This document shows positions 42,041-64,000 of a DNA stretch of 64,000 nucleotides, in pieces. A model generated the notes under the pieces. It was not told the DNA's origin, ran no database searches, and worked only from the letters and a program-made list of their open reading frames with translations. This stretch comes from Gemmatimonadales bacterium (GTDB taxonomy: Bacteria > Gemmatimonadota > Gemmatimonadetes > Gemmatimonadales > GWC2-71-9), in NCBI GenBank assembly GCA_035575675.1, contig DATLXS010000182.1, positions 880 through 64,879 of the forward strand. Reading direction: 5' to 3'. Positions within the stretch are counted from its first letter, which is position 1; each line of letters opens with the position of its first letter. The translations under genes were made by a program, and so were the position numbers.

Positions 42041-42046
42041 AGGGTC

Positions 42047-44179: not shown

Positions 44180-44208
44180 AAGCTAGGAAAAGAGGAGACT
44201 TAGGTCAA
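44180..44208 (-). promoter_or_regulatory. Possible sigma-70-type promoter for the RNase E/G gene
   Basis: The minus strand reads TTGACC (44208-44203), a 17-nt spacer, then TAGCTT (44185-44180). It overlaps the acyl-CoA dehydrogenase stop and would give a ~150-nt structured leader. Confidence 0.25.
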
Positions 44209-45431
44209 TCGATCAGACCGCCGAGCAACTGCCGCGCAATCACGACGCGCTGGATCTCGCTCGTTCCCTCGCCGATCTCGCAGATCTTGGCGTCCCGCAT
44301 CATGCGCTCGACCGGGTACTCGGTGGTGTAGCCGTACCCGCCATGCAGCTGCACGGCCTTCGTTGTGGCGCGCATGCACAGCTCGGAAGCGTAGAGCTTG
44401 GCCATCGCTGCTTCCTTCTTGAACGGATGGCCCTGTTGTTTGAGCCAGGCGGCATGATATACGAGCTGCTTGGCGGCTTCGATCTCGGTCGCCATGTCGG
44501 CCAGCGCGAAATGCACGCCCTGGAAGCTCGCGATCGGCCGGCCGAACTGCTTGCGGGTGGACGTATACGCCAGACACTCGTCCAACGCTCCCTCGGCCAA
44601 CCCGAGCGACAGGGCGGCGATGCCGATCCGGCCGCCGTCGAGCGTGTGGAGAAACTGCCGGAAGCCGTTGTTCACTGGTCCGAGCACATTTTCCTTCGGG
44701 ACGATCGCGTCCTGAAAGATCAGCTCACGGGTGTCCGATGCCCGCCAGCCCAGCTTGTCTTCTTTTTTGCCTGACAGGACGCCGCGGTTCTTCGGTAGCT
44801 CGGCAGAGGACGCGTGGCCGATCCCCACGCGCTTCGCCTCGTCGAGGTCGCACGTGTCTTTGCTGACAATGAAGGCCGTGATCCCGTGCGTGCGTTTGGC
44901 GGTCGGATCGGTGCGCGCGGTGACGCAGAAGATCTCGCCGACGCCGGCGTGGGTGATGAAGATCTTCGAGCCGTTGAGGACGTAGTGGTCGCCTTTGTCG
45001 ACCGCGGTCGTCTTGGTGCCGCCCGCGTCCGAGCCCGCGCCCGGCTCCGTGAGGCCAAAACCGCCCAGGACCTTCCCGGGCGCGAGCAAGGGTACGAAGC
45101 GGCGCTTCTGCTCGTCGGTGCCGAAGTCCACGATCGGCGACGTGCCGAGCGTGGTGTGGGCGCTGACGGTGATGGCGTGACTCGCATCGACTTTCGCAAG
45201 CTCATGGATCACGGTGATGTAGGACAGATAATCCATCCCCGACCCGCCCAACTCCTCCGCCCACGGAATCCCGAACAGCCCGAGCTCCGCCATCCGTTTG
45301 ATGTTGTCCCAGGGGAAGCGGCTGTCGAGATCGTATTGGCGGGCGGTGGGTTTGACGACGTTCCGGGCGAAGTCTCGCACCATCTCGCGAACCTGGAGAT
45401 GGTGGTCGGAGAAGTAGAGGCTATCGTGCAT
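44205..45431 (-). CDS. Acyl-CoA dehydrogenase
   Basis: 408 aa. ACAD pattern ..[10 protein letters not shown].., ..QFG.PIASFQ.. and C-terminal ..YEGTSEIQ-like ([15 protein letters not shown]). Confidence 0.9.
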
Positions 45432-45443
45432 GCAGGAAAATAC

Positions 45444-45487
45444 GACGGTAAGGGACGGTAAAGAAGCGACGGTAAAGGACGGTAAGG
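45444..45487. repeat. GACGGTAAnG iteron array, single arm
   Basis: GACGGTAAGG GACGGTAAAGAAGC GACGGTAAAG GACGGTAAGG fills the recQ-stop to acyl-CoA-dehydrogenase-start spacer. C-rich in the sense of both flanking genes. Confidence 0.85.
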
Positions 45488-45488
45488 G

Positions 45489-46616
45489 TCACACCTCGCC
45501 GAAGTGTTGGAGAATGATCGCGCGGTGGTTCCGGCGCGCCTCGACGTACCGCCGCATCGCGGGCGCAATGTTGCCCCACGCGAGATCCTCCCTTCGCCAC
45601 AACACCAGACATTCGGCTGCCCTGCCGTCCCTGCCGCCCCTGCCGGCCTCTTGGTAGTAGGCCTCCAACGTGGGCGGGGGACCCCAATGCAGCACCTGCC
45701 GAACGTCCGGCTTGTCGATGCCCATGCCGAACGCGCTCGTCGCGACGATCACACGCACCTGATCGGTGAGGAACGCCCGTAATACACGCCGGCGCATGCC
45801 GGGACTGAGACCGGCGTGATAGGGGGCCGCGCGCACACTCGACCGCAGGAGCGCGCGCGCGACGAGCTCGGTCAGGCGGCGGGTTGGCGTGTAAATGAGC
45901 GACGCTCCTGCCCCGGTGCGGACGCGCTGGCGGATCGCCGCGAAGCGCTCGCGATCATCTCGCACGCGACAGACACGCAAGTCGAGATTGGGACGATCGA
46001 ACGACGTCACCACGACCTCGGCATCTGGCATGCGCAGTACGTGCAGGATGTCGGTGCGAGCGGCCGGAGTCGCGCTTCCCGTCAGGGCAATCGTCGGGGG
46101 CCGTCCGAGCGCCGCGCGGAACACGCCGAGGCGCCGGTAGACCGGCCGGAATTCGTTGCCCCATTCGGCGATGCAGTGCGCCTCGTCGATCGCGAGCAGC
46201 GACACCCGCGTGCCGGCTGCTACGAGGCGTCGCGTCAGCGATGCCAATCGCTCCGGCGCGCAGTACAGCAGCGCGAGCCGCCCCGCGGTCGCCGCGTCCA
46301 GGATGGTGCGCCGCTGGGTGGCATCGAGCTGGCTGTTCACGTAGGCGGCCGCGATGCCCCGGCGTCGCAGCGCGCCGACTTGATCCTGCATCAGCGAGAT
46401 CAAGGGCGACACGACGAGCGTCAGGCCGGCGTCGAGCAGCGCGGGGACCTGGTAGCAGAGCGACTTCCCCGCCCCAGTGGGGAGTACGGCGAGGACGTTC
46501 CGGCCGGCGAGCAGCGGGCCCAGCACTCTGAGCTGATGGACGCGGAAGCGGGCGTGACCGAACCGTTCCTTGAGGATTGTGCGCGCGGCCTCGAGTCCCA
46601 CGGTGCAGGTCGGCAT
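45489..46616 (-). CDS. RecQ-family helicase core, lacking Zn-binding/WH/HRDC domains
   Basis: 375 aa. Motifs LAVLPTGAGKS, DEAHC, TATA-like LTGSATP and YYQEAGRGGRDG. Ends ..AIILQHFGEV* exactly where RecQ proteins begin the Cys4 zinc cluster. Confidence 0.8.
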   Translation of the reverse strand: MPTCTVGLEAARTILKERFGHARFRVHQLRVLGPLLAGRNVLAVLPTGAGKSLCYQVPALLDAGLTLVVSPLISLMQDQVGALRRRGIAAAYVNSQLDATQRRTILDAATAGRLALLYCAPERLASLTRRLVAAGTRVSLLAIDEAHCIAEWGNEFRPVYRRLGVFRAALGRPPTIALTGSATPAARTDILHVLRMPDAEVVVTSFDRPNLDLRVCRVRDDRERFAAIRQRVRTGAGASLIYTPTRRLTELVARALLRSSVRAAPYHAGLSPGMRRRVLRAFLTDQVRVIVATSAFGMGIDKPDVRQVLHWGPPPTLEAYYQEAGRGGRDGRAAECLVLWRREDLAWGNIAPAMRRYVEARRNHRAIILQHFGEV

Positions 46617-50132: not shown

Positions 50133-50450
50133 TCACCCCGCATCTTTCCAGTCAATCGCATAGCTGCGCCCACATTCGTGGCACTTGGCGTCCTTGCGAT
50201 TCTCGGGGACGACGGTCCGCGCGTGACATCCGGGGCACACCAGGTGTGGCTGGCGCACCACACTCCAGGCGCTGGGTCGCTCGCTCCGAATCTCGAGATC
50301 CGCTTTTGGGATCCGGATCTCCACGTGGTGCACATCCAGCACCACGAAGTCCTTGGGCGGATTTTCGACGACGCGATACCAGGCGCCGCGCCGGAGTCCC
50401 TGTCCTTCCGCACGATCACCGCGACTACGAGCCCAACCGATGTCAGCCAT
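50133..50450 (-). CDS. Hypothetical protein with C-terminal zinc ribbon
   Basis: 105 aa from MADIGW (ATG 50450, 8-nt overlap with the upstream GroES-like gene). C-terminal CPGC..(13)..CHEC. Confidence 0.45.
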   Translation of the reverse strand: MADIGWARSRGDRAEGQGLRRGAWYRVVENPPKDFVVLDVHHVEIRIPKADLEIRSERPSAWSVVRQPHLVCPGCHARTVVPENRKDAKCHECGRSYAIDWKDAG

Positions 50451-50808
50451 GCTTCCCTCGCACAAGGACGAGAATCGCCGCCTGTGGCACGACGAGATAC
50501 GTCTTACCCTCGAATGTGATTTCTACGGCCGCTTTCCGGAAAAAGAGCGCGTAGTCTCCCGCCTCCGCCTGCGTCGGCAAATACTTCACCTCAGCGCCGT
50601 GAATCTTCCACGGCTCCTCGTCCATGCTCGCCGGCTCGGGCATCGGGGTGCCGGGGCCGGTGGCGACGATGCGGCCGCCCTGCACCTGGCGGCCCTCGAT
50701 GGCGGAGGGAGGGAGATAGAGTCCGACGTTCGTGCGCTCCTCCCCCTCCTCGGGCGAGATGAGCACACGATCGCCGACGACGATCAAGCGCTTCGGGTCT
50801 TCCGGCAC
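50443..50808 (-). CDS. GroES/Cpn10-like protein (atypical, with insert)
   Basis: 121 aa. LIVVGDRVLISPEEGEERTNVGLYLP..A....QGGRIVATGPG ... GDYALF ... YLVV....ILV follows the GroES beta-barrel pattern. There is no groEL nearby. Confidence 0.55.
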   Translation of the reverse strand: MPEDPKRLIVVGDRVLISPEEGEERTNVGLYLPPSAIEGRQVQGGRIVATGPGTPMPEPASMDEEPWKIHGAEVKYLPTQAEAGDYALFFRKAAVEITFEGKTYLVVPQAAILVLVRGKHG

Positions 50809-50944: not shown

Positions 50945-52168
50945 ATGCAAGAGGTAACGAACGCCGGGCAGACCCAACAGTGGAGCTTCGTGCTTCAGCA
51001 ACTGGTGCAGTGGGTTGTCGCGGGGTTTACGTGGATCGTCCCCATCCAGGCGCGCATCCTCGATTTCGTGCTGCGGGGTGAGTCCTTCTGGAGTCTCGCC
51101 GCGACGTCGGTGCTGCTGTTCCTGCCGGCGATGGCGGTCATCGGCGGATTGTGGCTGACGATGGCCGCGGTGTACACGATCCCGTTCCGGCTCGGTCGGT
51201 CGGTGACGCTCCTGCAGTCGGTCGCGCTGGCGTGGTGGGACGTGCTGCGCATGTCGTGGTTCTACTGGGCGGGCCTGGTGCGCTTCCTGATCGTCCTCAT
51301 CGGCTGGGTCTGGGGCCTGATCCAGTTGAGCGGGAGGCTCATCGTCGGCACGGTGAAGGGCGCGATCACGTCGCCGCTTGCCGTCCTGGACGCGACGTCG
51401 CGCCGTCCGGGCGTGCCGTGGCCCGCATTCTTCATGTTGGTGTTCTGGTCGATGATCGAGGCCACAATTTTCACCTTCACGCTGAAGCCGACGGCGAGTG
51501 AGTTGCTCGGCGAGCTCACCGGCTACGAGGTCAACGGGTTCGCGTTCATGATGTTGCTCTGGCTGTTCCTGTGGGTTCTGGTCGCGGGCAGCTTCGCGTG
51601 CATTCAAGTCTTGAACGAGGCCATCAAGAGCAAAAAGTACGGGCAGATTGTCTCGATGGTGGCCATCGAAATCGCCGTGGCGATGTTCGAGGTGCTGTTC
51701 CTGTATCGCGAGCTGGTCGACGCCATGACGCCGTGGCTCGCGCAGCAGGGCGTTCAGCTCACAGCCATTGAGACGATCGGACTCGCGTTCTTTGCCTGGG
51801 TCGGCGTGCGCGGCATGACGTGGTTCCTGTTCGGCCGCTTCGGCGCGCCGGCGATGATCGCGCTCCTCGGCCGCCAGGGGTTGGTCGTCGAGGGTGGAGC
51901 CGGCCACGGGCCCGCGCCGCAGATGGCCGACTACTGGAAGGGGCCGATCGCGGCCCTCAAAGCGGAACGCGAATGGTTTCGCAAGGAGGCGCGGGAGGTG
52001 TTCGAGCTGGCGTCGCTCCCGGTTCTGCAGGTGGTTGCCGCGGGGCTGAACTTCCTGTTCGTCGTCTTCACGGGCCGCGGCCACTTTACGTTGCCGTTCA
52101 AGTCGATCGACGAGGTGCTCGCGGCCACGCATTTCCCCGCTCGCGTGAGCGGCGAGGTGGCGCGATGA
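50945..52168 (+). CDS. Polytopic inner-membrane protein, unknown family
   Basis: 407 aa with about 8-9 hydrophobic, Trp/Phe-rich segments (e.g. FWSLAATSVLLFLPAMAVIGGLWL, WFYWAGLVRFLIVLIGWVWGLI, GFAFMMLLWLFLWVLVAGSF). I recognise no motif. Confidence 0.6.
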   Translation: MQEVTNAGQTQQWSFVLQQLVQWVVAGFTWIVPIQARILDFVLRGESFWSLAATSVLLFLPAMAVIGGLWLTMAAVYTIPFRLGRSVTLLQSVALAWWDVLRMSWFYWAGLVRFLIVLIGWVWGLIQLSGRLIVGTVKGAITSPLAVLDATSRRPGVPWPAFFMLVFWSMIEATIFTFTLKPTASELLGELTGYEVNGFAFMMLLWLFLWVLVAGSFACIQVLNEAIKSKKYGQIVSMVAIEIAVAMFEVLFLYRELVDAMTPWLAQQGVQLTAIETIGLAFFAWVGVRGMTWFLFGRFGAPAMIALLGRQGLVVEGGAGHGPAPQMADYWKGPIAALKAEREWFRKEAREVFELASLPVLQVVAAGLNFLFVVFTGRGHFTLPFKSIDEVLAATHFPARVSGEVAR

Positions 52169-53013: not shown

Positions 53014-53806
53014 GATTCTCCAGGCTCACCGTCCGTATCCACTCGGCGGGATCCGTCGGCGCGTGAGGTACCAGCCCCCGCCACACCTTGTAGCGCAGCT
53101 TCCGCAAGCCGGTCAGCGCACGCCCATCCGCAAACGGAATCAGTCGCCGCACTCGTCGCGCCAGGGCCAGCCGCGCGGCGCGCCACCGCGCGCCGTCGCC
53201 CGGCCGATATTGCGCCCACCCGATCGAGCCGCAGAGACCCGCAGGACCGAATTGGTCTGAGGCGAGCAGCTCCTCGGCAAACACGCGCACCGGCCCCTCA
53301 AAGCTGTGCAGTACGTCATGCATCGCGACGATCGCACCCGGCGCCAGGTGCGGCCGAAAGAGGTCGATATCCTCCTTCGCGCCGCGGTACGTGTGGTCGC
53401 CGTCGATCCACAGGAACCGGATCGACCGAGTCCACCCCTGCGCGAGGTCACGGGAATAGGCGCGATGCGCCTCGACAGTTCGCTCGACGCCTGCGTCGCG
53501 CAGCGACGCCTGGAAGTCATCCCACGACGATTGCTGCGAGCCATGTCCAAAGTCTGTGACGGCGGGGGCGGAGTGCGGATCGACGCTTACGACGGGGCCG
53601 AGGCCATAGTGCTGCGCGATGGAGGCCAGCCCAACGGTGGACTTTCCCTTGTAGCTCCCGATCTCGAGGATCGTCCCGCGGGCGGGGGCGCACGCCGCCG
53701 CGAGCGCCAGGAACCGCGCTTCGCGCTCCGTTAAAAACCCCGGAGCGGCCCGGACGCGTGTCCAGGCCTCCTCAACGGCTTGTCCAAGATCAGACGGCGT
53801 GGTCAG
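53006..53806 (-). CDS. Class I SAM-dependent methyltransferase (Methyltransf_24-like)
   Basis: GTILEIGSYKGKSTVGLA (motif I), VVSVDPH and LWIDGDHTY. Homology begins near FLTEREARFL. There is no ATG/GTG/TTG in frame between 54079 and the domain. CTG at 53806 would make a CTGA overlap with the bacilliredoxin stop. Confidence 0.65.
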   Translation of the reverse strand: MTTPSDLGQAVEEAWTRVRAAPGFLTEREARFLALAAACAPARGTILEIGSYKGKSTVGLASIAQHYGLGPVVSVDPHSAPAVTDFGHGSQQSSWDDFQASLRDAGVERTVEAHRAYSRDLAQGWTRSIRFLWIDGDHTYRGAKEDIDLFRPHLAPGAIVAMHDVLHSFEGPVRVFAEELLASDQFGPAGLCGSIGWAQYRPGDGARWRAARLALARRVRRLIPFADGRALTGLRKLRYKVWRGLVPHAPTDPAEWIRTVSLENRR

Positions 53807-54237
53807 CAGTGCTGCTCGAATGCCGCGGTCAGGTCGGCCGCGATGTCGCGCGCGTTCCGCCCTTCGATGTTGCGCCGCTCCAGCATGAACACGATCCGCC
53901 CGTCCTTGAACAGGGCGATCTGCGGCGACGACGGTGCGTACCCGGTGAAGTAGCTGCGGGCGCGTGCCGTCGCGTCGGCATCCTGCCCCGCGAATACGGT
54001 GACGAGACGCGCGGGACGGCGATCGTGTTGGATCGCCAGCGCCGCCGCGGGCCGGGCATTGCGGGCGGCACAGCCGCACACCGAGTTCACCACGACGAGG
54101 GTCGGCGCGCGTTCGCTGGCGAGCACGCCGTCCACCTCTTCAGGCGTCCGCAGCTCTTCGAAGCCCAGACGGGTCAGCTCCTCCCGCATCGGGCGGACCA
54201 TCTCGGGATCGTACATCGGGACGTTCAGATTGCGCAT
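53803..54237 (-). CDS. Bacilliredoxin (BrxA/BrxB, DUF1094 family)
   Basis: 144 aa. TLVVVNSVCGCAARNARPAA (CGC redox motif), TVFAGQD, YFTGY.PSSP and C-terminal LTAAFEQHC. Matches B. subtilis YphP/YqiW along its whole length, from memory. Confidence 0.8.
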   Translation of the reverse strand: MRNLNVPMYDPEMVRPMREELTRLGFEELRTPEEVDGVLASERAPTLVVVNSVCGCAARNARPAAALAIQHDRRPARLVTVFAGQDADATARARSYFTGYAPSSPQIALFKDGRIVFMLERRNIEGRNARDIAADLTAAFEQHC

Positions 54238-54244
54238 ACGCTCC

Positions 54245-55003
54245 TCATTTCTGTAAGAACGCGCTCAGCGCTGCCCGGAAGTCGGGCGTGCTTCTGCTGA
54301 CCGCATTGACATCGGCGCCGAGCCGCAGGCCGTCCTCGAAGCTCAGCCCATCGAGCTGGTAGAACTGCTGCTTGGTGAACGCGAGCGCCGATGGGCTCGC
54401 CTCCGCGAGCACGCGCAGTACCTCGCCTGCCTGCTCCTCGAAGTCCGCATCCTCATACACCCGCGACGCGAGTCCCGCCGCGGCGGCCGCGGTGCCGTCG
54501 AGCAGCCGCCCCGTCGTCGCGAGGTCGAACGCGATCTTCTCGCCCACCGCGCGCCGCAGCATCGTCATCACGATGGCCGGGACAAAGCCGCGCTGGACCT
54601 CGGGGTAGCCGAACTGTGCCGATTCCGCCGCCACAACGAGATCGGATGCCGTCGCGAGCCCGCAGCCGCCCGCGAGCGCGCGTCCCTGCACCAGCGCGAC
54701 GATCGGCTTGGGCAGCCGCCGCATCCGCATGAAGACCTGCGCAAAATGCAACGCGGCCTGACGGTTCTGCTCGAGCGTGTGGTCGGCCGAGGCGAGCAGC
54801 TCGTTCAAATCCATGCCGGCGCAGAAATCTCTGCCGCTGCCGCGCACTGCGACCACCCGCACCGATGCATCCAGATCGGCTCGCTCGATCGCCGCGAGCA
54901 ACCCGTCGATCATCGCGGCGTCGATCGCGTTGCGCTTGTCGGCGCGGTTCAACGTCGCGGTGAGCACCCCACCCGCGAGCTCGGTCAGGACGCGCTCGCT
55001 CAC
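54245..55003 (-). CDS. Enoyl-CoA hydratase/isomerase family protein
   Basis: 252 aa. LNRADKRNAI, FCAGMDL and VQGRALAGGCGLATASD. Confidence 0.85.
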   Translation of the reverse strand: MSERVLTELAGGVLTATLNRADKRNAIDAAMIDGLLAAIERADLDASVRVVAVRGSGRDFCAGMDLNELLASADHTLEQNRQAALHFAQVFMRMRRLPKPIVALVQGRALAGGCGLATASDLVVAAESAQFGYPEVQRGFVPAIVMTMLRRAVGEKIAFDLATTGRLLDGTAAAAAGLASRVYEDADFEEQAGEVLRVLAEASPSALAFTKQQFYQLDGLSFEDGLRLGADVNAVSRSTPDFRAALSAFLQK

Positions 55004-55317
55004 TTGCGCACCTCGATCTCCATGCGGAGCAGTGCGGTGGAGAAGACCTTGCCCTGTGCGTCCGTCTTGAGCGAGATCGTGCCACCACCATCGAGCGCGC
55101 CGTGCAGCAGGAAGTTCAGCGCGAAGAGGTTGGGCAGCTCGAAGCGTTCGACCGTGCCGGTAATCATGCCCTTAAAATGCCGTGCGACGCGCGCCGCCGT
55201 CACCTGCTTCACGAGCAGCGGGTAATCCTTGGGCTTGAGTGCAATCAGGCCAATGTTGGCCGTGTCGCCCTTGTCGCCCGAGCGTGCATGCGCCAGCTCC
55301 ACGAGTTTGCGTTTCAT
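55000..55317 (-). CDS. AtuA-related C-terminal-domain protein (stand-alone)
   Basis: 105 aa. LAHARSGDKGDTANIGLIA.. resembles the C-terminal module of long AtuA proteins. Overlap-coupled on both sides (ATGA, GTGA). Confidence 0.55.
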   Translation of the reverse strand: MKRKLVELAHARSGDKGDTANIGLIALKPKDYPLLVKQVTAARVARHFKGMITGTVERFELPNLFALNFLLHGALDGGGTISLKTDAQGKVFSTALLRMEIEVRK

Positions 55318-56696
55318 GCCTGGATCAGCTCCACTCCGTGCTGCACCATCCGTTTGTCGATCAACGCCGGCCAGTACGCCACGATTTCCTCGGGCTTCGG
55401 GCGTCCGCCGGCAAAACCGGTCACGCTGGGCGGTCCATTGAGAATCAGCGGCGCGATCTCGCGCGTAAACCGATCGACCGGGGCCTCGTCCCGCGCCCGC
55501 ACGCCGACCCGCAGCTGCACTTCGGGCAGCGTCGCGACGTCCACGTCCTTGAGGGCGAGCGGGCCATGGGTGGCGGTGGCGCCGACAAACTCGGTGTGGA
55601 TCGCCTCGAACGCGAGCCGGAGGTCCTTGAGACGCTGGCGGAGGATGCGATCGGCGGCCTTCGCCTTCTCGAGCGCATCGGGCCAGGCGTAGACGAGCGT
55701 ACCGATCGCCTTGTAGCCGTAGAAGTAGGCGAGCGAGACTTTCAGCTTATCGGTCGCCGGCTTTCCCCTGACACCAGACACCTGCACCCGGTCTTTGCCG
55801 GCCTGGCGCAATTGGATCGTCGTAAAGTCGGCCACGCCGTCGGGCGTGATGTACGCCCGTGGATCGCCCATCTCGTAGACCAGTTGCTCCGTGACAGACG
55901 CGACGTCGATGCGCCCGCCGGTCTGCGGATGCTTGATGAGATCGAACGTGCCGTCGGCGCGGGCTTCGACGATCGGGTACCCGACGTTCGCCAGGTCGGG
56001 AATGTGCTGCCAGTCGCGCAGGCAGTTGCCGCCGCTGCACTGCGCGCCGCATTCGATGATGTGTCCCGCGACCGTGCCCGCGGCGATCTCGTTCCAGGCG
56101 TCCGGGGCCCAGCCAAACGCGTGCATCAATGGTCCGAGCGTCAGGCCGGTGTCGGTGACACGTCCCGTGATCACGACCTGGGCGCCGCGCTGCAAGGCAT
56201 CCACCACCGGAGCGGCGCCGAGATACGCGTTGGCCGACAGCACGCGGTCACGAACGTCGCCTAACGGTCGCCCGGTATCGAGGTTGGCGAGCGTATGGCC
56301 GCGCGCCATCAAGCCGTCCAGCCGGCCCAGCAGGTCGTCACCGGTCACGACGCCGATCGTGAGCTTGCCGCCAAGCTTGAGCTTCCGCGCCACCTCGGCG
56401 ACGGCCATGGCACACGCGCGGGGATTCACCCCGCCCGCGTTGGCGGTCACTTTGATGCCGCGCTCGACGACGGTGGGAAGGATACGCTCCATCTGCGTCA
56501 CGAAGTCGGTCGCGTAGCCGCGTGCCGGATCGCGCGACTTCTGTTTTTGCAGGATGGACATGGTGACTTCGGCGAGGTAGTCCATCATGAGGTAATCGAT
56601 CGGGCCGCCGCTCACCTGGCGGTACGGCGCCTCCAGCCAGTCTCCCCAAAACCCCTGCCCTCCCGCGACTCGGACGGTCGCCGGACGGGCCGTCAC
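55314..56696 (-). CDS. DUF1446 / AtuA-family (acyclic terpene utilisation) protein
   Basis: 460 aa. VRVAGGQGFWGDW..IDYLMMDYLAEVTMSIL N-terminal signature. Confidence 0.75.
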   Translation of the reverse strand: MTARPATVRVAGGQGFWGDWLEAPYRQVSGGPIDYLMMDYLAEVTMSILQKQKSRDPARGYATDFVTQMERILPTVVERGIKVTANAGGVNPRACAMAVAEVARKLKLGGKLTIGVVTGDDLLGRLDGLMARGHTLANLDTGRPLGDVRDRVLSANAYLGAAPVVDALQRGAQVVITGRVTDTGLTLGPLMHAFGWAPDAWNEIAAGTVAGHIIECGAQCSGGNCLRDWQHIPDLANVGYPIVEARADGTFDLIKHPQTGGRIDVASVTEQLVYEMGDPRAYITPDGVADFTTIQLRQAGKDRVQVSGVRGKPATDKLKVSLAYFYGYKAIGTLVYAWPDALEKAKAADRILRQRLKDLRLAFEAIHTEFVGATATHGPLALKDVDVATLPEVQLRVGVRARDEAPVDRFTREIAPLILNGPPSVTGFAGGRPKPEEIVAYWPALIDKRMVQHGVELIQA

Positions 56697-59524
56697 TTTA
56701 CCCCACCCGCTCCGCGCGACTGCGGCCCGACCACGGTGCGGCGTGCCGAGACCGAGCCCGTCGACGTCGTCACGCGTGTCTCGATGAGTGGCCCGTATCC
56801 CGCCGGCATATCGAGCGACGGCGCGTTGGGCAACCGAATCACGCTGCGTCCGCCGGCGACGACCGAGAGCGCGGTGGCATCACCCACCGCAGCGTCTGGA
56901 CCGACGAATCGCACGAGGGCGGTGCCACGCCAGGCGTGCGTCGGAAGGCGGGCGAATGCGGGATAGAACTCGACGGTGAGGGGGATCCCCCTGAGCGAGT
57001 CGGACAGGGCCAGACCCATGCGCCCGAAGGCGTAATTCACCGGTTCGTTGCCGCCGCGGACCTGCTGGCCGGTCGAGTCGTAGACCGTGACCGACAAATC
57101 CGTCAGCTCGTCCCATAACTCGGCGGGGACCTCGAAGTCCACTTCCATCCGCTTCGCCCAGCGCGGCGGGCGCACCTGCAGCGATTCGGCGGGCTGGCCG
57201 CGGCCGGCAATGGCATAGCTCCGCTCGGCGCCGACGAGCCGGTAGGCGACCTGGCCCGGCGCGGTGGTGCCCTGCGTGCCGCCGACACTCGAGGCCTCGA
57301 GCCCCCACGCTCCGCCCGCTCCCTGGTGCGCCGCGCCGAGCGCAACGGGTCCCAACTCTGCGCGCACGGTGACCGCCGTGGTTGCCAGCGGCGGCGCGAC
57401 GACGTCGAGCTCGTACACACCCGCGATCATGTCCTCGGCACGCACGGTGATGGTTGCGCTGCCCGGCTCCAGTTCGCCGATGTCGATGTCGTTCGGCGCT
57501 GCGCGCGCGGGTGCACCGTTTGGCTCGTAGAGGCGCACCGTCGCCTGCTGGCGCTGCGAATCGGGAAGCGTCACGCTCGCGCGCAGGGTGGCGTTGTCTT
57601 CGGGCACGCGCAGAAAATAGCGCTGCACCGCGCCGGGACCGACGGCGCGGCGTTCGTCGAACAGCGCATTCGTCGTGAGGTCGGTGGGTACGATGACCGT
57701 ATTCACGAGCGTGAACAACGGACCGGCAATGGGGTCGCGGGGATTCAGCGCGACGACCGTTCCCACGTAGATGCCGGGTGCCGTCAATGCGCTGCGATTG
57801 TAGGTCACGGCGATCTGGGTCGCACGGGGCGCGGCGTCGATGGAGTCGTCGACCGAGAGCCAGGGAGCGTTCGCACGCAGGACGAACTCGGCGGCGCGGA
57901 GGCCGCCCATGTGACGGACGGTAAACGTTTCCACACTGTCCTCGGGACCGGCAAACCCGTTGCGCCGGAACGCGGCGGTCACACCGCTCGAGGCCTTCAC
58001 GGCATAGATCGATCCCTGGTGGCCCCCTTCGAGCCATTGGTACGCCGTTTCGAGCACGGGCATCCCGGCACCGTCATCGAGGACGCGCGCGCCGGAGAGC
58101 TGCCGCCCCGACATCCGCAGCGCCTGCACGATGTCGGCGGACGTGGCGCGGCGGCCCTCTTGCGTCAACGCCGACACGAGGCAGGCAGCGAGACCGGCCG
58201 CGTGGGGGGACGACATGCTCGTGCCGGGCTTGATCTCGTTCCCGGTATCCCAGCGTGGGACGCTGGAAAATGCGACGCCCGGCGTTACGATGTCGGGTTT
58301 CGCGAGCTCGCCGCCGCGCGAGCTGAACCACGCGAGCACATCGCGGGCCGGCGGCACGCCCTGCCGTGGTGGTCCTGTGAAGACGCCGGGCAAGACGGCG
58401 CCGACGGACAGCGCCAGGCTCGACGAACCGGGAAACCCCAGCGTGGACCATCCAGGGCCATCGTTGCCGGCACTGATCGCGAAGACGGCCTCCGGATGGG
58501 CGAGCAGGAAGGCATCCACGATCGAATCGATCACGGCGCGGCCCTCATGCTCGTTGCCGACCCCGAAACTCATGTTGAGCACGAGCGGTAGATTGCGCTG
58601 CGCGGCGTAGCGGGCGGCGTAGTCGATCGCGCGCATCATGCTGGCGTGGACCGAGACGCCGCCGCGCGCGTTGTTCGCGATCTTGAGGCCGATGATCTGC
58701 GCCCCGGGCGCCACACCGCTGAACCCCGCCACGTCGAACAGGTTGTAGCCGGCGGCGATTCCGGCCACGTGCGTCCCATGCCCTGACGTGTCGAAGAAGA
58801 GATCGAGCGCCGGCGTGCTGTCCGCCACCACCTGACTGAAATTCGCGACGATCGTCAGCGGCTTCGTGCCGAAGGCGATCATCTCACGGCCCTGGCGATA
58901 GTCGTGCAGCGGCATCTCATCTTCGAACGAGCCGTCGCGGTTGGTATCGATGAACGCCACCCAGCCATCGGACGCCCTGACGACCACGACGGGAAACTCG
59001 TCGGTGTTGCGGCCGTTGCCGTTGACGTCACCCGCCGGCGGGCGGCCGAGCGGCAGCTCGCGAAAGACCCCGCGATACCAGGTCGTGGCGGTGGTCAGGC
59101 GGCCGATGCGTGCCGCTCCCTTCATCTCCTTGTCCGTCGGTGCGGGGAACGCCGTCAGCGCCACGCGGCCTTCGCCCGAGAAGTCGCGCAGCTCGATGAT
59201 CTTCGGGGCGCCCGTGCTGGTGACCATCAGTCCCGGGACGCCCGGGTCGACGCCACTGTCGAGAATGGCGATCAGCACGCCACGGCCGTCGTAGGTCGGG
59301 TGCAGTGAGCGAAATACGTCCACCCCGGTGCTCTTGAGCGGCATCAGACCGAGCATGTACGCCATTGCCGGATCGACCGCCGGCTGCGCCATGGCGGCGC
59401 GGCTGCCGTCCGATGGGACTGCAGCGACTGCCGCGGCCGGCTTGGGCGGAGCGGGTTTGGTGATGCCCTTGCTCGAGGCGCAGGCGGTGAGAGCGAGCAG
59501 GAAGATGGCGGCAGGCGTGCGCAT
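56693..59524 (-). CDS. S8 (subtilisin-family, TPPII-like) lipoprotein peptidase
   Basis: 943 aa from ATG 59524 ([15 protein letters not shown] lipobox). Catalytic triad AILDSGVD, HGTHVAGIAAG and GTSMSSPHAAG. The 1369-aa ORF-track version is an artefact that extends in a second reading frame into the carboxyltransferase gene region (59524-60802). Confidence 0.85.
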   Translation of the reverse strand: MRTPAAIFLLALTACASSKGITKPAPPKPAAAVAAVPSDGSRAAMAQPAVDPAMAYMLGLMPLKSTGVDVFRSLHPTYDGRGVLIAILDSGVDPGVPGLMVTSTGAPKIIELRDFSGEGRVALTAFPAPTDKEMKGAARIGRLTTATTWYRGVFRELPLGRPPAGDVNGNGRNTDEFPVVVVRASDGWVAFIDTNRDGSFEDEMPLHDYRQGREMIAFGTKPLTIVANFSQVVADSTPALDLFFDTSGHGTHVAGIAAGYNLFDVAGFSGVAPGAQIIGLKIANNARGGVSVHASMMRAIDYAARYAAQRNLPLVLNMSFGVGNEHEGRAVIDSIVDAFLLAHPEAVFAISAGNDGPGWSTLGFPGSSSLALSVGAVLPGVFTGPPRQGVPPARDVLAWFSSRGGELAKPDIVTPGVAFSSVPRWDTGNEIKPGTSMSSPHAAGLAACLVSALTQEGRRATSADIVQALRMSGRQLSGARVLDDGAGMPVLETAYQWLEGGHQGSIYAVKASSGVTAAFRRNGFAGPEDSVETFTVRHMGGLRAAEFVLRANAPWLSVDDSIDAAPRATQIAVTYNRSALTAPGIYVGTVVALNPRDPIAGPLFTLVNTVIVPTDLTTNALFDERRAVGPGAVQRYFLRVPEDNATLRASVTLPDSQRQQATVRLYEPNGAPARAAPNDIDIGELEPGSATITVRAEDMIAGVYELDVVAPPLATTAVTVRAELGPVALGAAHQGAGGAWGLEASSVGGTQGTTAPGQVAYRLVGAERSYAIAGRGQPAESLQVRPPRWAKRMEVDFEVPAELWDELTDLSVTVYDSTGQQVRGGNEPVNYAFGRMGLALSDSLRGIPLTVEFYPAFARLPTHAWRGTALVRFVGPDAAVGDATALSVVAGGRSVIRLPNAPSLDMPAGYGPLIETRVTTSTGSVSARRTVVGPQSRGAGGVK

Positions 59525-61095
59525 CACGAGAGACCCGGGAGTGCAAAGGCCCCGAGATGGGGGCCGGTGAATTCCGTAGACACCTCGAGGAGAAACGCCA
59601 GCGTGTCGCGCGTTTCGTCGGGTGTGAGAATCGCATCGACAAAGCCGCGGGCGCCTGCGAATTTCGCGTCCAGCTGATGCTCGTAATCGGCGCGCATCGC
59701 GTCCACGGCGGCCGCGTTGTCCGGCGTCGTGGCGTCGGCGCCGTACACCGCCTGAATCGCCGACTCCCCTTCCATGACGCCCATCCGGCCCGTCGGCCAC
59801 GAGACGATGAAATCCGGATCGAACCCCTGACCGGCCATCGCATAATAGCCGGCACCGGAGGCGTGGTTCACCGTGAGGACGAGCTTCGGCACCGTCGCCG
59901 TCGCCATCGCCTCGACGAAGCGCGCGCCCGCCCGGATGATGCCGGTGTGCTCCGCTTCCGTCCCGACCATGAAGCCCGACACATCCTGAATGAACAGGAG
60001 CGGCACGCGCTCCCGGTCGGCGTTCTCGATGAAATACGCGACTTTCTCGGCGCTCTCCGTGTAAATGATGCCGCCGATGCGCGGCGCTGCATTCTTCTTC
60101 TTTCCCTTGATGACGCCGCGCGAGTTGGCGATCACGGCGACTTGCCGCCCCTCGATGGCGCCGTGCCCGCAGATCATCTCGGGGGCAACGTCCGGCTGGA
60201 ACTCGTCGAGCCGTCCGCCGTCGAGCAGGCACTCGAGCAGCGCGCGGACGTCGTAGCTCATCCGATGATCGACGGGGATCAGGTCGTACAGTGCCTTCGG
60301 GTCGCGCTTTGGTGCGGGATAGGTACGGCGCGCCGGCGGCGGGTGCGGCAAACGGGCCACGTACTCGCGGATCCTGGCCAGGCAGTCTTTGTCGTCTTTC
60401 GCGCGGTAGTGCGCGACGGCACTGACCGATGTGTGCGTCGTGGCGCCGCCCAGCGTCTCGGCATCGACCACCTGGCCGGTCGCGCCCTTCACGAGGTTGG
60501 GCCCGCCCAGTCCCATGAACGACGTGCCGTCCACCATGAAGATCACGTCCGACAGCGCCGGCAAATACGCACCGCCCGCAATGCACGGTCCCATCACGGC
60601 CGCGATCTGCGGCACCTTGAGGTAGCGCCGCATGATGGAGTTGTAGTAGAAGATTCGGGCCGCGCCATATTGACCCGGGAAGACCCCGCCCTGGTACGGC
60701 AGGTTCACGCCCGCCGAGTCGACCAGATAAATGATGGGGATGCGCTGCCGCATCGCGATTTCCTGCGCGCGGAGAATCTTGCGGATCGTCTCGGGCCACC
60801 ACGACCCGGCCTTGACCGTCGCATCGTTCGCCACCACCACCACGGGGCGCCCCCCCACGCGACCCAGCCCCGTGACCACACCGGCGGCGGGCGCCTGCCC
60901 ATCGTACTGGTCCCAGGCGACGAGGAGCCCGATCTCGACCCAGGGGCCGTCCGGGTCGAGCAACGCGGCCACCCGCTCGCGCGCCGTCAACTTGCCCTGA
61001 TCGTGCTGGCGCTTGATGCGCTCCGCGCCGCCGCCCTGTTCGAGGCGGCCGCGGAGCGTCTGGTATTCGTCGTTGAGGGTCTTGAGGCGGCTCAC
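59524..61095 (-). CDS. Acyl-CoA carboxylase carboxyltransferase (beta) subunit
   Basis: 523 aa from GTG 61095 (GTGA overlap). ..[24 protein letters not shown] and GGAYLP.. motifs of propionyl/methylcrotonyl/geranyl-CoA carboxylase beta subunits. Confidence 0.9.
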
Positions 61096-61508
61096 GCGGC
61101 GACGTGCTCCACCGCCCACTCCTGGATGTACCTGATCAGGTCCGACGTCGGCGTGCCGGGGCCGAACAACTTGCCCGTGCCCTGCGATTCCAGCGCCGTC
61201 ATGTCTTCAGGGGGAATGATGCCGCCACCGGTCAGCAGCACGTCCTGCCGCCCGGCGGCGTCGAGCAGTTTGCGAACCCGCGGGAACAGCGTCATGTGCG
61301 CGCCGGACAGAATCGACAGGCCCACGACGTCGACGTCCTCCTGAATGGCGGCCTGCGCGATCATCTCGGGCGTCTGATGCAGCCCCGTGTAGATCACTTC
61401 CATGCCGGAATCGCGCAGCGCCGCCGCGACGACTTTCGCGCCGCGGTCGTGCCCATCGAGGCCCGGCTTCGCGACGAGAATGCGGATCGGACGCCGGGAT
61501 TTGGCCAT
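61092..61508 (-). CDS. Methylmalonyl-CoA mutase, cobalamin-binding (small) subunit
   Basis: 138 aa. [21 protein letters not shown] (DxHxxG B12-binding motif) and [11 protein letters not shown]. Confidence 0.9.
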
Positions 61509-62572
61509 CAGGCGCGGAACCGCAGCAGCGCCGCCAGGCCGTTCACGACGCGCCGGGCCTTGTCGTCGTAAAGGACATCGATCTGGGCGCGCTGACCGAG
61601 CGCCTCTTCGATTGCCTCATCGATGCGGGCGTCATCGTCATGGCCGTCGGCCAACAGGGTGCGCACCTGGCCGCGGCGTAGCGCCTTGAGCGTGGCGTCG
61701 ACGCCGTTGACGGCCCAGCCGCGCGGCACACCGTCTTTCACGGCATCGGCGTGAGCGCGCTCCCAGGCGCGCTCGCGTTCCTCGCGCAGCCCCAGCGTGG
61801 CGTCCCGCACCTCCGCCGCCGTCGCCTGCTTGGGACTGAGTTTCACCACACCAAACACCAGGTCGTGCACATAGGTGTGAAGGTGGGGAATCACGGCCCC
61901 GGCGTCCACACCCACACCGCCCACGACGATGCCGGCCAGCGGCCTGGTGCGATTGATCTGGAAGACGCGGTCGGCGATCTGCGCATAGAGCCGGTGCTTC
62001 TCGGTGCGAATGCGCTGGTGAAACTTGTGTTCTCCGGTGCCGCCGTGGAACTTCCCCACTCGCGATGTTTCGATGCCGGCCAGGCCGGGCAGCTCTACGC
62101 AATCGTACGCGGTGACCTCGAAAAAGCGCGCCGCCGTGCGGTCATACACGACGGCGAGGATGGTGCCGAACTCTTCTTCGAGGCCGAGCAGCTCGCGCAC
62201 CAGCGGTTCGTGCGAGACGGCGAGCCGGGAGCGATGCACGTGCGGCAGGGGCAGGACTTCGAACAGGCCCAACTCCCGTGAGGCGAAGATGGCAATGGCC
62301 CGCGCCCGCGGGAGGTGATTCGGTTGCTCCAGGTAGTCCACCACCTGTTCCAAATTCGTGGCGACGGCCGGTTGGTCTTCATACTCGCGCAGCAATCCTT
62401 TGGCGCGGGTCTTCATCTTGATCAAATACTTGCCACGCGTCCTGTCCCGGGGCTCGAGCTTGAGGTAGCACGAGACCACCCAGTGCAGCCCAGGCTCCAT
62501 CCGCGCCAGGCGCGCAATCGCTGCCTGGACGTCTTGCTCGGTGATCGCGGCAGGCAGGGGGGGAGCACTCAT
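61508..62572 (-). CDS. eRF1/Pelota-like (bacterial aeRF1-superfamily) protein
   Basis: 354 aa. C-terminal [24 protein letters not shown] ... GLAALLRF follows the eRF1/Pelota domain-3 pattern. Central loop [14 protein letters not shown]. Family-level call from motif memory only. Confidence 0.5.
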
Positions 62573-62575
62573 GAT

Positions 62576-64000
62576 CTAAAAGAAGACGGGTTCGCGGTAC
62601 GCTCCCCACACGCGCTCCAGCGCGTGGCGGATCTCGTACAGCGTCGCGTAGGCGCGCGCACAATCGAGCATTGGGCCAATCACGCTCTGATCCGCCTCCG
62701 CCGCCTGCCGCAGAACGTCGAGCCGCCGCTCGACCAGGGCCGTGTCTCGCTCCGCGCGTACGCGGGCGAGGCGGCGACGCTGCTCGTCCTCAGCATCGTT
62801 GGAGACCTTCAGGATTTCGACGGGGTGGTCGTCCTCGGACAAGAACTCGTTGACGCCGACGATCACCTTCTCATTGCGCTCGATGTGACGCTGGAAGGCG
62901 GCCGCCGACTGGGCGATCTGCCGCTGGAACCAGCCGCTCTCGATCCCGCGGACCACGCCACCGATCGAATTGATCTCGGCAAAGAGTGCTTCGGCTTCGC
63001 GCTCGAGCTGGTCCGTGAGCGCCTCGATGAAATACGAGCCGCCCAGTGGATCGATCACGTCGGCCACGCCGGTTTCGTGGGCAAGGATTTGCTGGGTCCG
63101 GAGGGCGACCTGCACCGACTGCTCGGTGGGAAGGGCGAGCGTCTCATCCAGCGAATTCGTGTGGAGCGACTGTGTGCCGCCGAGGACGGCGGCGAGTGCC
63201 TGGTAGGCGACGCGCACGATGTTGTTGAGCGGCTGTTGGGCCGTCAGCGTAACGCCGGCCGTCTGACTGTGGAACCGCATCATCCAGGAGCGCGCGTGCT
63301 TCGCTTTGTAGCGCTCGCGCATGTGCCGGGCCCAGATCCGGCGCGCGGCCCGCAGCTTGGCGATCTCCTCGAAGAAGTCGTTGTGGCTGTCCCAGAAGAA
63401 GGAAAGGCGCGCGGCGAAGCTGTCGATATCGAGACCCCGGGCGATACCGCGTTCGACATAGGTAAACCCGTTCGCGAGCGTGAACGCGAGCTCCTGCGCC
63501 GCGGTGGCGCCCGCTTCGCGGATGTGGTAGCCGGAGATCGAAATGGTGTTCCACAGCGGCGTGTGCTTGGCGCCCCACTCGAACATGTCGACGATGACCT
63601 TGAGCGCGGGCTCGACCGGATAGACCCACGCATGCTGGGCCATGTACTCCTTCAGAATGTCGTTCTGCACCGTGCCGCGCAGCTTCGCGAGCGGCACACC
63701 CTGCTTCTCGGCCGCGGCCACGTAGAAGCAGAAGAGAATGGCGGCCGGACCGTTGATCGTCATGGAGGTCGACACCTGATCGAGCGGGATGCCGTCGAAC
63801 AGAGTCTCCATGTCCGCCAGGGACGAAATGGCGACACCGCACTTCCCGACCTCGCCCTCCGAGCGCGGGTGATCGGAGTCGTAGCACATCATCGTCGGGC
63901 AATCGAACGCGACGGAGAGGCCGGTCTGCCCATGGTCGAGCAGGAACTTGTAGCGCCGATTCGTATCGGCCGCGCCGCCGAAACCGGCGAACTGCCGCAT
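62576..64000 (-). CDS. Methylmalonyl-CoA mutase, catalytic (large) subunit, C-terminal 474 aa in window
   Basis: [48 protein letters not shown]. The ORF runs off the window end, so the N-terminus is not visible. Confidence 0.9.

Follow-up and report, generated by a model that had tools for sequence, protein, structure and literature searches.

A divergent Balon-like gene of the aeRF1 superfamily placed between the genes for the two subunits of a B12-dependent acyl-CoA mutase in Gemmatimonadales

Factors of the Balon type were recognised only in 2024, when Balon, Rv2629 and MSMEG_1130 were shown to be hibernation factors of the ribosomal A site (PMC10901736), and so far their genes are known from operons for stress, hibernation and RNA repair. 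Balon binds the A site with EF-Tu and inhibits translation, and typical neighbours of Balon genes include RaiA, RtcB and Hsp20 (PMC10901736). The HP motif of Balon, an insertion in the N domain, touches A1492/A1913; the protein also has a lasso loop around A2602 and a bL27 trap, and a beta-hairpin insertion of its C domain has been proposed to select the EF-Tu state or tune EF-Tu binding. In the survey of bacterial aeRF1-like (baeRF) proteins by Burroughs and Aravind (2019; PMC6514570), hypervariable loop length is typical of the non-catalytic baeRF-1 families, and a well-conserved Gln in the catalytic loop was described for baeRF family 10 (PF18854).

Here we describe a gene in a 64-kb stretch of Gemmatimonadales DNA (the window) that encodes a three-domain protein of the aeRF1 superfamily, of the baeRF_family10 or Balon-like kind (354 aa, 61508..62572 on the minus strand, ATG start). 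It is a genuine, intact gene under purifying selection: its codon-position GC contents (GC3 0.83, GC2 0.43) are the values of a real gene, and its dN/dS lies between 0.08 and 0.13. A pseudogene or decaying passenger was ruled out by ORFs that are intact in more than 150 loci with dN/dS of about 0.1. The rate at which the protein evolves is about double that of the mutase subunits encoded on either side of it.

The initial annotation had called the protein eRF1/Pelota-like, and Pfam, profile and fold matches concur in this. The Pfam family baeRF_family10 matched residues 123–260, over the middle domain, with 42.8 bits against a gathering cut-off of 27.1. The same family is precomputed on relatives of the protein, one of which is named 'baeRF10 domain-containing protein' by NCBI, and it is a catalogued bacterial aeRF1-like family. 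The remark of the initial annotation that such families lack an experimental function is outdated, since the baeRF-1 homologues Balon, Rv2629 and MSMEG_1130 are the A-site hibernation factors of 2024 (PMC10901736). Matches to the NCBIfam models for the ribosome hibernation factors Rv2629 and MSMEG_1130 were full-length but weak; the Balon equivalog models Rv2629, MSMEG_1130 and AOC03_06830 gave 35, 26.5 and 20.7 bits against cut-offs of 320, 480 and 330. By these scores, the protein represents a subfamily distinct from the curated equivalogs.

When PDB was searched with a profile built from 57 diverse homologues, the best match was Balon MSMEG_1130 (E 3.7e-35, full length), followed by Rv2629 (5e-21), aRF1 (4af1, full length, 2.7e-20) and P. 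urativorans Balon (4.7e-13), and then by Pelota and eRF1. Balon and aRF1 were reached only with this diverse profile; phmmer with the single sequence found nothing relevant in PDB, and a narrow-clade profile found no PDB match at 1e-5. An AF2 model of the protein (pLDDT 85.7, pTM 0.76) was compared with PDB by Foldseek, and its top match was ribosome-bound Msmeg1130 (8v9j_z; E 3e-19, TM 0.64), with TM values of 0.57–0.59 for the remaining Balons. Foldseek matches at E below 1e-5 came exclusively from the aeRF1 superfamily, and neither profile nor structure led to an unrelated fold. Sequence identity to the Balons is 14–20%. Profile and model together indicate that the Balons (MSMEG_1130, Rv2629 and that of P. 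urativorans) are the nearest solved relatives, before aRF1, eRF1 and Pelota.

The protein has the three-domain architecture of the superfamily, with an N domain, an RNase-H-like middle domain and a Pelota/L7Ae-like C domain, and it shares with the Balons (PDB 8rd8/8rdv/8rdw, 8v9j/8v9l and 8v9k) both this fold and the lack of GGQ and NIKS. From the secondary structure of the model and from full-length alignment to MSMEG_1130 and aRF1, the N-terminal domain (about residues 1–122, 62207..62572, minus strand; pI 9.2) is the counterpart of the aeRF1/Balon domain that binds the decoding centre. It contains a basic loop, EPRDRTRGK (residues 40–48, 62429..62455), as a candidate for the HP-motif position. 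The segment 'THREHPAND' of P. urativorans Balon aligns with an 11-residue stretch here, in an alignment that is uncertain within the loop; the conserved Pro41 is present opposite the HP-containing loop of Balon, but the His is absent, and with it the His-Pro. In a clade alignment of 60 sequences P41, R42, D43, R46 and K48 never vary, at least 90% conservation is seen for R44, and the conservation that is specific to the clade clusters in residues 37–60.

The middle domain (about residues 123–250, 61823..62206, minus strand), placed by model and alignment, lies under the Pfam match. Its Gly-rich loop of 14 residues (about residues 173–187, 62015..62056), which had been proposed to sit where release factors carry their catalytic loop, is indeed the positional equivalent of that loop, in truncated form: in the HMM alignment the family's 'PGWGE' stands opposite 'GGQSA' of aRF1, and the window protein has GGTGE with Thr at the Gln position, where relatives have Ala or Trp. 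Among 166 relatives the loop is hypervariable, 8–45 aa long and without a fixed Gln; the 8-residue central loop of the window protein is the shortest form, common to loci L003 and L022. The model reaches its pLDDT minimum in this loop (about 52), and a conserved Arg/Lys helix follows immediately. As for the lasso loop and bL27 trap of Balon, this variable loop is the one part of that region that we located. PGWGE is conserved in the sister group, and relaxed or truncated in the mutase-linked clade. No GGQ was found in the whole sequence or in the alignment, and no NIK string occurs in the protein, in which LREYEDQP is the segment aligned with the NIKS-type stop-codon motif. Without GGQ and NIKS, the window protein is not expected to be a release factor.

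The C-terminal domain (about residues 251–354, 61511..61822, minus strand) was delimited by alignments to relatives, Balon and aRF1. The eRF1/Pelota domain-3 pattern read there by the initial annotation aligns with domain 3 of both aRF1 and Balon, and the motifs quoted for it are in place, RRGQVRTLL at residue 299 and GLAALLRF at 345, as is the Gly-rich loop. With aRF1/eRF1 the protein shares domain order, a full-length match and agreeing C-terminal motifs (GxxxxxxALxxGxVxxLL ... LRF/Y). Deeper relatives keep a Cys-containing insertion of about 28 aa at the position of the zinc-ribbon mini-domain of aRF1. Neither the window protein nor any relative of at least 59% identity has this insertion, and the motif spacing is 10 residues in the window protein versus 38 in the deeper clade. 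The window's subclade thus differs from aRF1/eRF1 in having lost the mini-domain, and from the Balons in lacking the C-domain beta-hairpin/ZnR-remnant insertion and in its minimal 8-residue central loop; the protein is also shorter, at 354 aa versus the 360–420 aa quoted for Balons. In sequence, this subclade looks stripped down, with the insertion lost and the shortest central loop. A set of 51 positions, core motifs included, is conserved jointly by the mutase-linked clade and a sister clade found in hibernation operons.

As had been noted from the sequence, the gene stands between two mutase subunit genes. Upstream is the large (catalytic) subunit of an acyl-CoA mutase (62576..64000, cut by the window end; Pfam MM_CoA_mutase, 675 bits), and downstream is the B12-binding small subunit (138 aa, 61092..61508; Pfam B12-binding, TIGR00640). 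An acyl-CoA carboxyltransferase subunit (59524..61119; Pfam Carboxyl_trans, 435 bits) and an S8 peptidase with a lipoprotein-type signal peptide (LLALTAC; 56693..59524), recognised by synteny with Peptidase_S8 genes of the relative locus L001, come next. The co-directional genes of 53803..56696 complete the series with AtuA (55314–56696), AtuA_ferredoxin (55000–55317), enoyl-CoA hydratase (54245–55003) and, as last gene, a Disulph_isomerase-family protein (53803–54237), which has a terminator-like hairpin at 53754–53739 on its 3' side; all of these genes are on the minus strand.

At the upstream junction of the baeRF gene the TAG of the large subunit is followed by 3 nt (atc) and the ATG, and at the downstream junction, TGATG, the stop codon and the start codon ATG of the B12-binding subunit have 1 nt in common. 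The tight coupling stressed by the initial annotation is therefore real, but it is not special to this gene: throughout the nine-gene block (53803–64000) junction gaps are all between +7 and −4 nt, or −28 nt with the first GTG of the carboxyltransferase, for which an alternative GTG start at 61095 would give a 4-nt overlap. Since all block junctions are equally tight, we rejected tight coupling as evidence of a special functional link. No sigma-70-like promoter was found inside the block, and terminator-like sites are at chance level. Rfam scans near the operon, in the window and in L001, detected no riboswitch or other RNA.

The placement is conserved across the order Gemmatimonadales, a group of soil bacteria. 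Among 167 sequences, which belong to Gemmatimonadota wherever a taxon label exists, the baeRF gene lies between the genes of the large and B12-binding subunits in 153, down to about 40% identity; this neighbourhood survey shows that the mutase linkage extends well beyond a single genome. The order MeaB, mutase large subunit, baeRF, B12-binding small subunit, carboxyltransferase, S8 peptidase and AtuA was seen at every one of the 80 loci from species-level genomes and at most loci from metagenomes. Where an inverted IcmF replaces the large subunit gene, the baeRF gene still adjoins the B12-binding subunit. The block or the slot also holds unrelated genes, namely the S8 lipoprotein peptidase, the disulfide isomerase and, in one subclade, an HAD hydrolase that shares the baeRF slot, which argues for a block that tolerates passenger genes. 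The persistence of the baeRF slot exceeds what would be expected for a neutral passenger, and general block synteny could alternatively explain its conservation.

The nearest relatives outside mutase operons (33–38% identity) are found in Archease-RtcB-HPF/CSD-HHH-baeRF-Hsp20 neighbourhoods, or beside Usp or Cpn60. This sister clade resembles many Balons in lying beside HPF, RtcB and Hsp20, and it alone has this Balon-type association; the mutase-linked clade sits in the mutase block, and no HPF, RtcB or Hsp20 homologue was found in the 64-kb window. Both types occur among MAGs labelled Gemmatimonadales, one Archease-RtcB-type locus being in such a MAG. A neighbour-joining tree, with internal branches of 0.004–0.02, does not separate monophyly of the mutase-linked genes from a nested position of the hibernation-operon clade. 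In our literature search no paper tied Balon to Gemmatimonadota or to a mutase operon; proteins of this type are known, but their placement in such an operon is apparently unreported.

The position between the subunit genes had also been described as one where MeaB is common, with no MeaB in the visible operon, which implied a replacement. A tblastn search indeed found no MeaB homologue in the 64-kb window, but this is an edge effect, because the window ends about 46 codons inside the large-subunit gene. In every syntenic relative with enough flank MeaB is the gene directly upstream of the large subunit, so the slot is not a vacant MeaB slot, and replacement of MeaB by the baeRF protein was rejected. 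Moreover, the protein gave no Pfam or NCBIfam match to MeaB/cobW (G3E P-loop GTPases), and its fold is unrelated to that of the MeaB/ArgK G3E GTPase chaperone, the sole likeness being that both are encoded in a mutase operon.

With a probability that we put at roughly 60%, the protein is a divergent member of the Balon-type baeRF-1 clade, a paralogue that binds the A site and has relocated to a tightly packed catabolic operon, with which it is co-expressed. Family, fold, motif losses, the conserved basic loop and Arg/Lys helix, dN/dS, sister-clade context and synteny count for this interpretation. NCBIfam scores far below cut-offs, the missing His of the HP motif, the lost C-domain insertion and the relaxed or truncated PGWGE loop count against it, and so do the exact slot kept to about 40% identity and the adjacency to the B12-binding subunit that is kept with IcmF. 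The protein would work like Balon, as a tRNA-shaped three-domain body entering the ribosomal A site. There, the decoding centre would be approached by the basic N-domain loop, and the peptidyl-transferase centre by the middle domain with the Arg/Lys helix after its degenerate GGQ-position loop; the C domain would face a translational GTPase. Ribosomes would thereby be idled and protected without peptide release.

The gene seen in Gemmatimonadales would descend from an ancestral copy, or from a paralogue of the Archease-RtcB-HPF-Hsp20 copy, that was embedded between the mutase subunit genes of a long, overlapping, catabolic block (MeaB, mutase, carboxyltransferase, S8 peptidase, AtuA, enoyl-CoA hydratase), and not in a stress operon as for Balons. 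Being embedded in this overlapping block, the baeRF gene is therefore presumably transcribed, and probably translationally coupled, with it. Binding to the ribosome and co-transcription are inferred here, as is the physiological logic behind such coupling: the dose of the baeRF protein would track a branched-chain or odd-chain acyl-CoA catabolic programme, which would be a signal of nutrient downshift. If ribosome binding is retained, this would be a natural case in which the dose of a hibernation factor is wired to a specific catabolic programme, with a whole order keeping a stripped-down Balon-like paralogue between the genes of a B12-dependent acyl-CoA mutase. In addition, such a minimal variant, with no C-domain hairpin and an 8-residue loop, may be useful for defining the requirements of A-site and EF-Tu binding.

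Other functions within the same superfamily seem less compatible with these observations. For baeRF family 10, published work has suggested activity as a class-I-like release factor or as a peptidyl-tRNA hydrolase. Such a function agrees with the passed Pfam cut-off, the conserved Gln reported for that family (PMC6514570) and the Gly-rich GGTGE loop; however, that Gln is not conserved in the clade, where the position holds Thr, Ala or Trp and the loop, at 8–45 aa, has no conserved Gln anywhere, and the NIKS-type codon-recognition motif is missing too. We rejected this function on the motifs and regard it as very improbable. Rescue or recycling of ribosomes in the manner of Pelota/Dom34, with non-catalytic binding in the A site of stalled ribosomes that are then split or rescued rather than stored, is an unlikely function. 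The protein shares with Pelota the superfamily, a non-catalytic nature without the catalytic Gln and a C domain without the mini-domain, and Pelota is among the significant matches; rescue roles were proposed for baeRF-1 proteins by Burroughs and Aravind (PMC6514570), and sister-clade genes adjoin the RNA-repair pair RtcB and Archease. However, Pelota/Dom34 matches were weaker in both sequence and fold than those of Balon and aRF1, the N domain aligns as the aRF1/Balon type, no partner GTPase or ABCE1-like gene was seen in the block, and the baeRF-1 members studied by experiment act as hibernation factors (PMC10901736).

The operon itself raises another kind of explanation, in which the protein has left the ribosome and serves as a mutase accessory that binds the large subunit, the B12-binding subunit or MeaB as a scaffold, an adaptor for cofactor loading or repair, or a regulator of the split enzyme. 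The strict slot in 153 of 167 sequences, the adjacency to the B12-binding subunit that survives the IcmF replacement, a stop/start overlap favouring stoichiometric co-translation, the loss or relaxation of the Balon-like C-domain insertion and PGWGE loop, and conserved residues peculiar to the clade all speak for it. Nevertheless, the known chaperone MeaB is encoded alongside at every locus where the flank is long enough, the 51 positions are shared with the hibernation-operon sister clade, and the top clade-specific conserved segment is a highly basic loop, as is typical of RNA binding. Position alone is weak evidence when an HAD hydrolase can occupy the slot and an S8 peptidase the block, and the faster evolution of the baeRF protein also counts against a mutase accessory, which we consider quite unlikely. 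No protein of the aeRF1 fold is known to us to act on a metabolic enzyme. Quite improbable as well is a Balon-like protein that is a functional partner of the mutase instead of a passenger co-expressed with it, either as a sensor or adaptor on the B12-binding subunit or MeaB that links the state of the mutase (cofactor loading, substrate flux) to ribosome idling, or as a fully repurposed assembly scaffold. If true, action on the mutase would put the release-factor fold to a use without precedent, and the partnership would be the first link of the aeRF1/Balon family to a metabolic enzyme.

The label methylmalonyl-CoA mutase (MCM), used in the initial annotation, is doubtful as read from the large-subunit sequence, of which the residue equivalent to Tyr89/Phe80/Ile90, relevant to substrate specificity, falls outside the window. 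The best PDB match of this subunit is HcmA (4r3u), a 2-hydroxyisobutyryl-CoA mutase, and it has 'YMAQHAW' where MCMs have 'FMVRNTY', with Gln replacing the carboxylate-binding Arg of solved MCMs, at a position that we take to be Arg207 of MCM and Gln198 of ICM.

Profile and structure searches place the 354-aa protein encoded at 61508-62572 (-), between the mutase large and B12-binding subunit genes, in the aeRF1 superfamily, and it is almost certainly a Balon-like member of baeRF family 10 with the aeRF1 fold. Its middle domain scored 42.8 bits with Pfam baeRF_family10 (cut-off 27.1), which on sequence grounds assigns it to that catalogued family; other baeRF families and eRF1 domain 2 were matched below threshold. 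Nearly full-length but weak NCBIfam matches to the hibernation-factor equivalogs Rv2629, MSMEG_1130 and AOC03_06830, and also to aRF1, were all far under their cut-offs, and in failing the curated Balon thresholds the protein differs from Balon. A single-sequence search of PDB found nothing. With a profile from alignment A1 (57 diverse homologues), PDB matches were Balon MSMEG_1130 (E 3.7e-35, covering residues 10-375 of 375), Balon Rv2629 (5.4e-21), archaeal aRF1 (2.7e-20 and 1.8e-15), P. urativorans Balon (4.7e-13), Pelota (1.7e-12) and eRF1 (about 1e-10). The AlphaFold2 model (60 homologues; pLDDT 85.7, pTM 0.76) is confident and three-domained, with a loop at residues 170-180 as its sole weak region. 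Foldseek against PDB gave ribosome-bound Msmeg1130 first (E 3.4e-19, TM 0.64), then aRF1, three P. urativorans Balon structures (TM 0.57-0.59), Rv2629 (0.57), eRF1 and Pelota, and no match outside the aeRF1 superfamily better than E about 1e-3. Because the profile and Foldseek matches belong to this superfamily, the eRF1/Pelota-like fold proposed in the initial annotation was correct. Its remark that such proteins lack experimental function has been overtaken by the 2024 work in which Balon and its mycobacterial homologues, as hibernation factors, occupy the ribosomal A site with EF-Tu (PMC10901736).

The gene is as first described, with an ATG start and a product of 354 aa, and its codon-position GC (third 0.83, second 0.43) is that of a real gene at a window GC of 65-70%. 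The motifs quoted at that stage are found at residues 174-187, 299-307 and 345-352, and the junctions were also read rightly: the TAG of the large-subunit gene is followed by 3 nt and the baeRF ATG, and in TGATG the baeRF stop shares one base with the ATG of the B12-binding small subunit. This tightness is a feature of the whole block and not peculiar to baeRF, since all nine co-directional genes at 53803-64000 (-) overlap or nearly touch (+7, -4, -4, -4, -1, -4 (or -28), -1 and +3 nt). A promoter scan found no sigma-70-like promoter within the block, and terminator-like sites occurred there at chance frequency. A hairpin with a T-run at 53739-53754 (-), about 50 nt past the last, disulfide-isomerase-family gene, may mark where the transcription unit stops, in a terminator scan that as a whole stood at chance level. 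Intact baeRF orthologues were present at more than 150 loci, and dN/dS against six relatives was 0.08-0.13, about twice that of the flanking mutase and carboxyltransferase genes (0.03-0.10). The gene is thus live and under strong purifying selection.

The linkage of baeRF to the mutase is real and old. Homologues at 75-97% identity are abundant, and every one with a taxon label is a Gemmatimonadales MAG. Two long contigs carry, on one strand and with overlapping junctions, 7TMR-HD, YbeY, CorC, CorC, MgtE, MeaB, mutase large subunit, baeRF, B12-binding subunit, carboxyltransferase, S8 peptidase, AtuA, AtuA-ferredoxin, enoyl-CoA hydratase and disulfide isomerase. When one genome was scanned for each GTDB species, the best 80 of 394 relatives were all from Gemmatimonadota (80/80, 47-96% identity), and the order from MeaB through mutase large subunit, baeRF, B12-binding subunit, carboxyltransferase and S8 peptidase to AtuA was kept wherever the flank sufficed; among these 80, baeRF fell to 47% identity with the mutase subunits still at 75-80%. 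Starting from more distant members, a scan of metagenomes added 80 further loci, and relatives sharing 40-50% identity with the window protein held the same position. Altogether 153 of 167 sequences were mutase-linked, 4 were on contigs too short to tell and 10 were elsewhere, and hence the linkage is not unique to this genome. The suggestion that baeRF fills the slot of a missing MeaB chaperone does not hold: MeaB always lies directly upstream of the large subunit in related loci with sufficient flank, as in L003, a 96%-identical relative, and therefore baeRF is not its stand-in. Only 474 of the roughly 520 aa of the large subunit are encoded before the window ends (about 46 codons are missing), so the MeaB gene of the source genome must lie just past coordinate 64000.

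The label methylmalonyl-CoA mutase (MCM) is itself doubtful. The large subunit (62576-64000, -) has 2-hydroxyisobutyryl-CoA mutase HcmA (4r3u) as its best PDB match, at 503 bits versus at most 459 for MCMs. It reads YMAQHAW, like YMAQKEY in HcmA, where aligned MCMs have FMVRNTY, so that a Gln at about nt 63635-63637 stands in place of the Arg of solved MCMs ('ILKEFMVRNTY'). That Arg (Arg207 in P. shermanii MCM) presumably binds the substrate carboxylate and is replaced by Gln in isobutyryl-CoA mutase. With genes for AtuA, a carboxyltransferase, an enoyl-CoA hydratase and an acyl-CoA dehydrogenase close by, an ICM-, HCM- or PCM-type mutase acting in branched-chain acyl-CoA metabolism is a likelier identity for the enzyme than an MCM.

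The ten relatives outside the mutase context share 33-38% identity with the window protein and about 50% with the deeper mutase-linked clade. They occur next to Usp or Cpn60 genes, or in an operon of Archease, RtcB, a 223-aa protein of unknown type, an HPF(S30AE)-cold-shock-domain chimera, an HHH_8/HHH_5 protein, baeRF and Hsp20; loci of this type are L165 (2820-8708), L167, L168 (the contig of L110) and L169 (GCA_035519565.1). RaiA/HPF, RtcB and Hsp20 are typical neighbours of Balon (PMC10901736) and of baeRF-1 families (PMC6514570), and a later preprint states that chimeric HPF genes often adjoin Balon. The Hsp20 of one sister locus is identical to a protein of GCA_035519565.1, and since this MAG, labelled Gemmatimonadales, has the full RtcB-HPF-baeRF-Hsp20 operon, both types occur in the order. 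More than one Balon copy per genome is common (38% of species; PMC10901736). In a neighbour-joining tree the mutase-linked and sister groups were nearest relatives, with a branching order that the tree does not fix. Fifty-one positions are conserved in both groups; those conserved specifically in the mutase-linked clade cluster in a basic N-domain segment (residues 37-60), and the PGWGE loop of the sister group is relaxed in that clade. This contrast is only suggestive, because the sister group was represented by no more than 18 sequences, and diverse ones.

Could the protein be a repurposed accessory of the mutase? In three or four loci a fused, opposite-strand IcmF replaces the large-subunit gene (L118, 1355-4786 (-), NCBIfam 1721 bits versus a 1500 cut-off; also L106 and L119), with MeaB upstream of IcmF and baeRF and the B12-binding small subunit still adjacent downstream, and this persistence of the pair speaks for such a role. 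However, the block accepts unrelated genes. In one subclade baeRF and the B12-binding subunit are separated by a gene for a HAD-IA family hydrolase (L102, 6173-6853; L163, 8173-8850; L164, 8149-8832), so the inter-subunit slot has taken in a second unrelated gene. Together with the S8 lipoprotein peptidase and the disulfide-isomerase-family gene, this makes the block a mosaic, which weakens any argument from position alone. An accessory role is unlikely. The peptidase (56693-59524 (-), 943 aa, with a lipoprotein-type signal) lies inside the acyl-CoA catabolic block, a position kept across the order; a mechanical ORF list over-extends its gene to 60802. In relatives the same-strand packing continues upstream through MeaB, MgtE, two CorC, YbeY and 7TMR-HD, so that more than 16 kb and 15 genes mix ion transport, rRNA maturation, catabolism and a protease.

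Catalysis of peptide release is very improbable. A string search found neither GGQ nor NIKS in the window protein, and in the HMM alignment the family loop PGWGE pairs with aRF1 GGQSA, with GGTGE in the window protein and Thr at the Gln position. In 166 related loci the length of the loop ranged from 8 to about 45 residues; the loop had no fixed Gln and ended in an invariant G-E. Unconstrained loop length and conserved arginines in the next helix, with A-site insertion retained, were described as the signature of non-catalytic baeRF-1 proteins by Burroughs and Aravind, who singled out family 10 as possibly keeping the catalytic Gln (PMC6514570); the clade of the window protein does not retain it. 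A Pelota-like rescue factor, as the Pelota matches might suggest, is a little less improbable than a mutase accessory; in all likelihood the protein acts as Balon does. The N-domain tip (K38 to residue 48) pairs, in an alignment that is uncertain over this loop, with THREHPAND of P. urativorans Balon, presumably the HP-motif loop because it holds the only HP dipeptide of the aligned N-domain stretch. In the clade of the window protein this loop keeps an invariant Pro and invariant or near-invariant basic residues, but not the His. Most of the distant relatives carry a Cys-containing C-domain insertion of roughly 28 residues, placed where aRF1 has its zinc-ribbon mini-domain and Balon its beta-hairpin; neither the window protein nor any relative at >=59% identity retains it. 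Two features of Balon, the HP-motif His and the C-domain hairpin, are thus missing from the window protein. The shortest GGQ-position loop (shared with the related loci L003 and L022), the lost insertion and a length of 354 aa, below the range of 360-420 aa given for Balons, make the window protein a trimmed-down member of its group.

We favour, at a probability of about 0.6, an account in which a catabolic operon captured the gene of a non-catalytic, Balon-type ligand of the ribosomal A site. The baeRF gene would share a transcript with the mutase genes and would probably be coupled to them in translation, and its level would follow a catabolic programme switched on once preferred substrates are exhausted. 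The analysis demonstrates the fold and family, the lack of catalytic motifs, purifying selection, the synteny, the MeaB gene and the setting of the sister group; binding to the ribosome, the common transcript and the physiological rationale are inferred. The class of protein is now understood; what was unexpected is to find it, order-wide, between the subunit genes of a B12 enzyme. Our literature search found no paper that ties a mutase operon or Gemmatimonadota to Balon or to other baeRF proteins. The placement may also be no more than operon hitch-hiking.

An Rfam scan that covered the window and L001, a 17-kb syntenic locus, revealed neither a cobalamin riboswitch nor another RNA element of this kind; a tRNA at 22984-23066 (-) is the sole match at gathering threshold in the window. 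At 50443-50808 (-) a 121-aa protein has a weak Cpn10 (GroES-like) match of 44 bits, with no adjoining Cpn60 among the window ORFs scanned. The ORF at 50945-52168 (+) encodes 407 aa with a gene-like GC3 of 0.89 and no Pfam or NCBIfam match. Genes for rpmA (bL27), rplU (bL21), RNase E/G, an acyl-CoA dehydrogenase and a DEAD-box helicase lie at 41762-46616 (-) and 40001-42000, and GC falls to its minimum for the window in the 40-42 kb bin (0.584 versus about 0.65-0.70). The protein trapped by Balon is bL27, and we treat the presence of its gene in the window as a coincidence.
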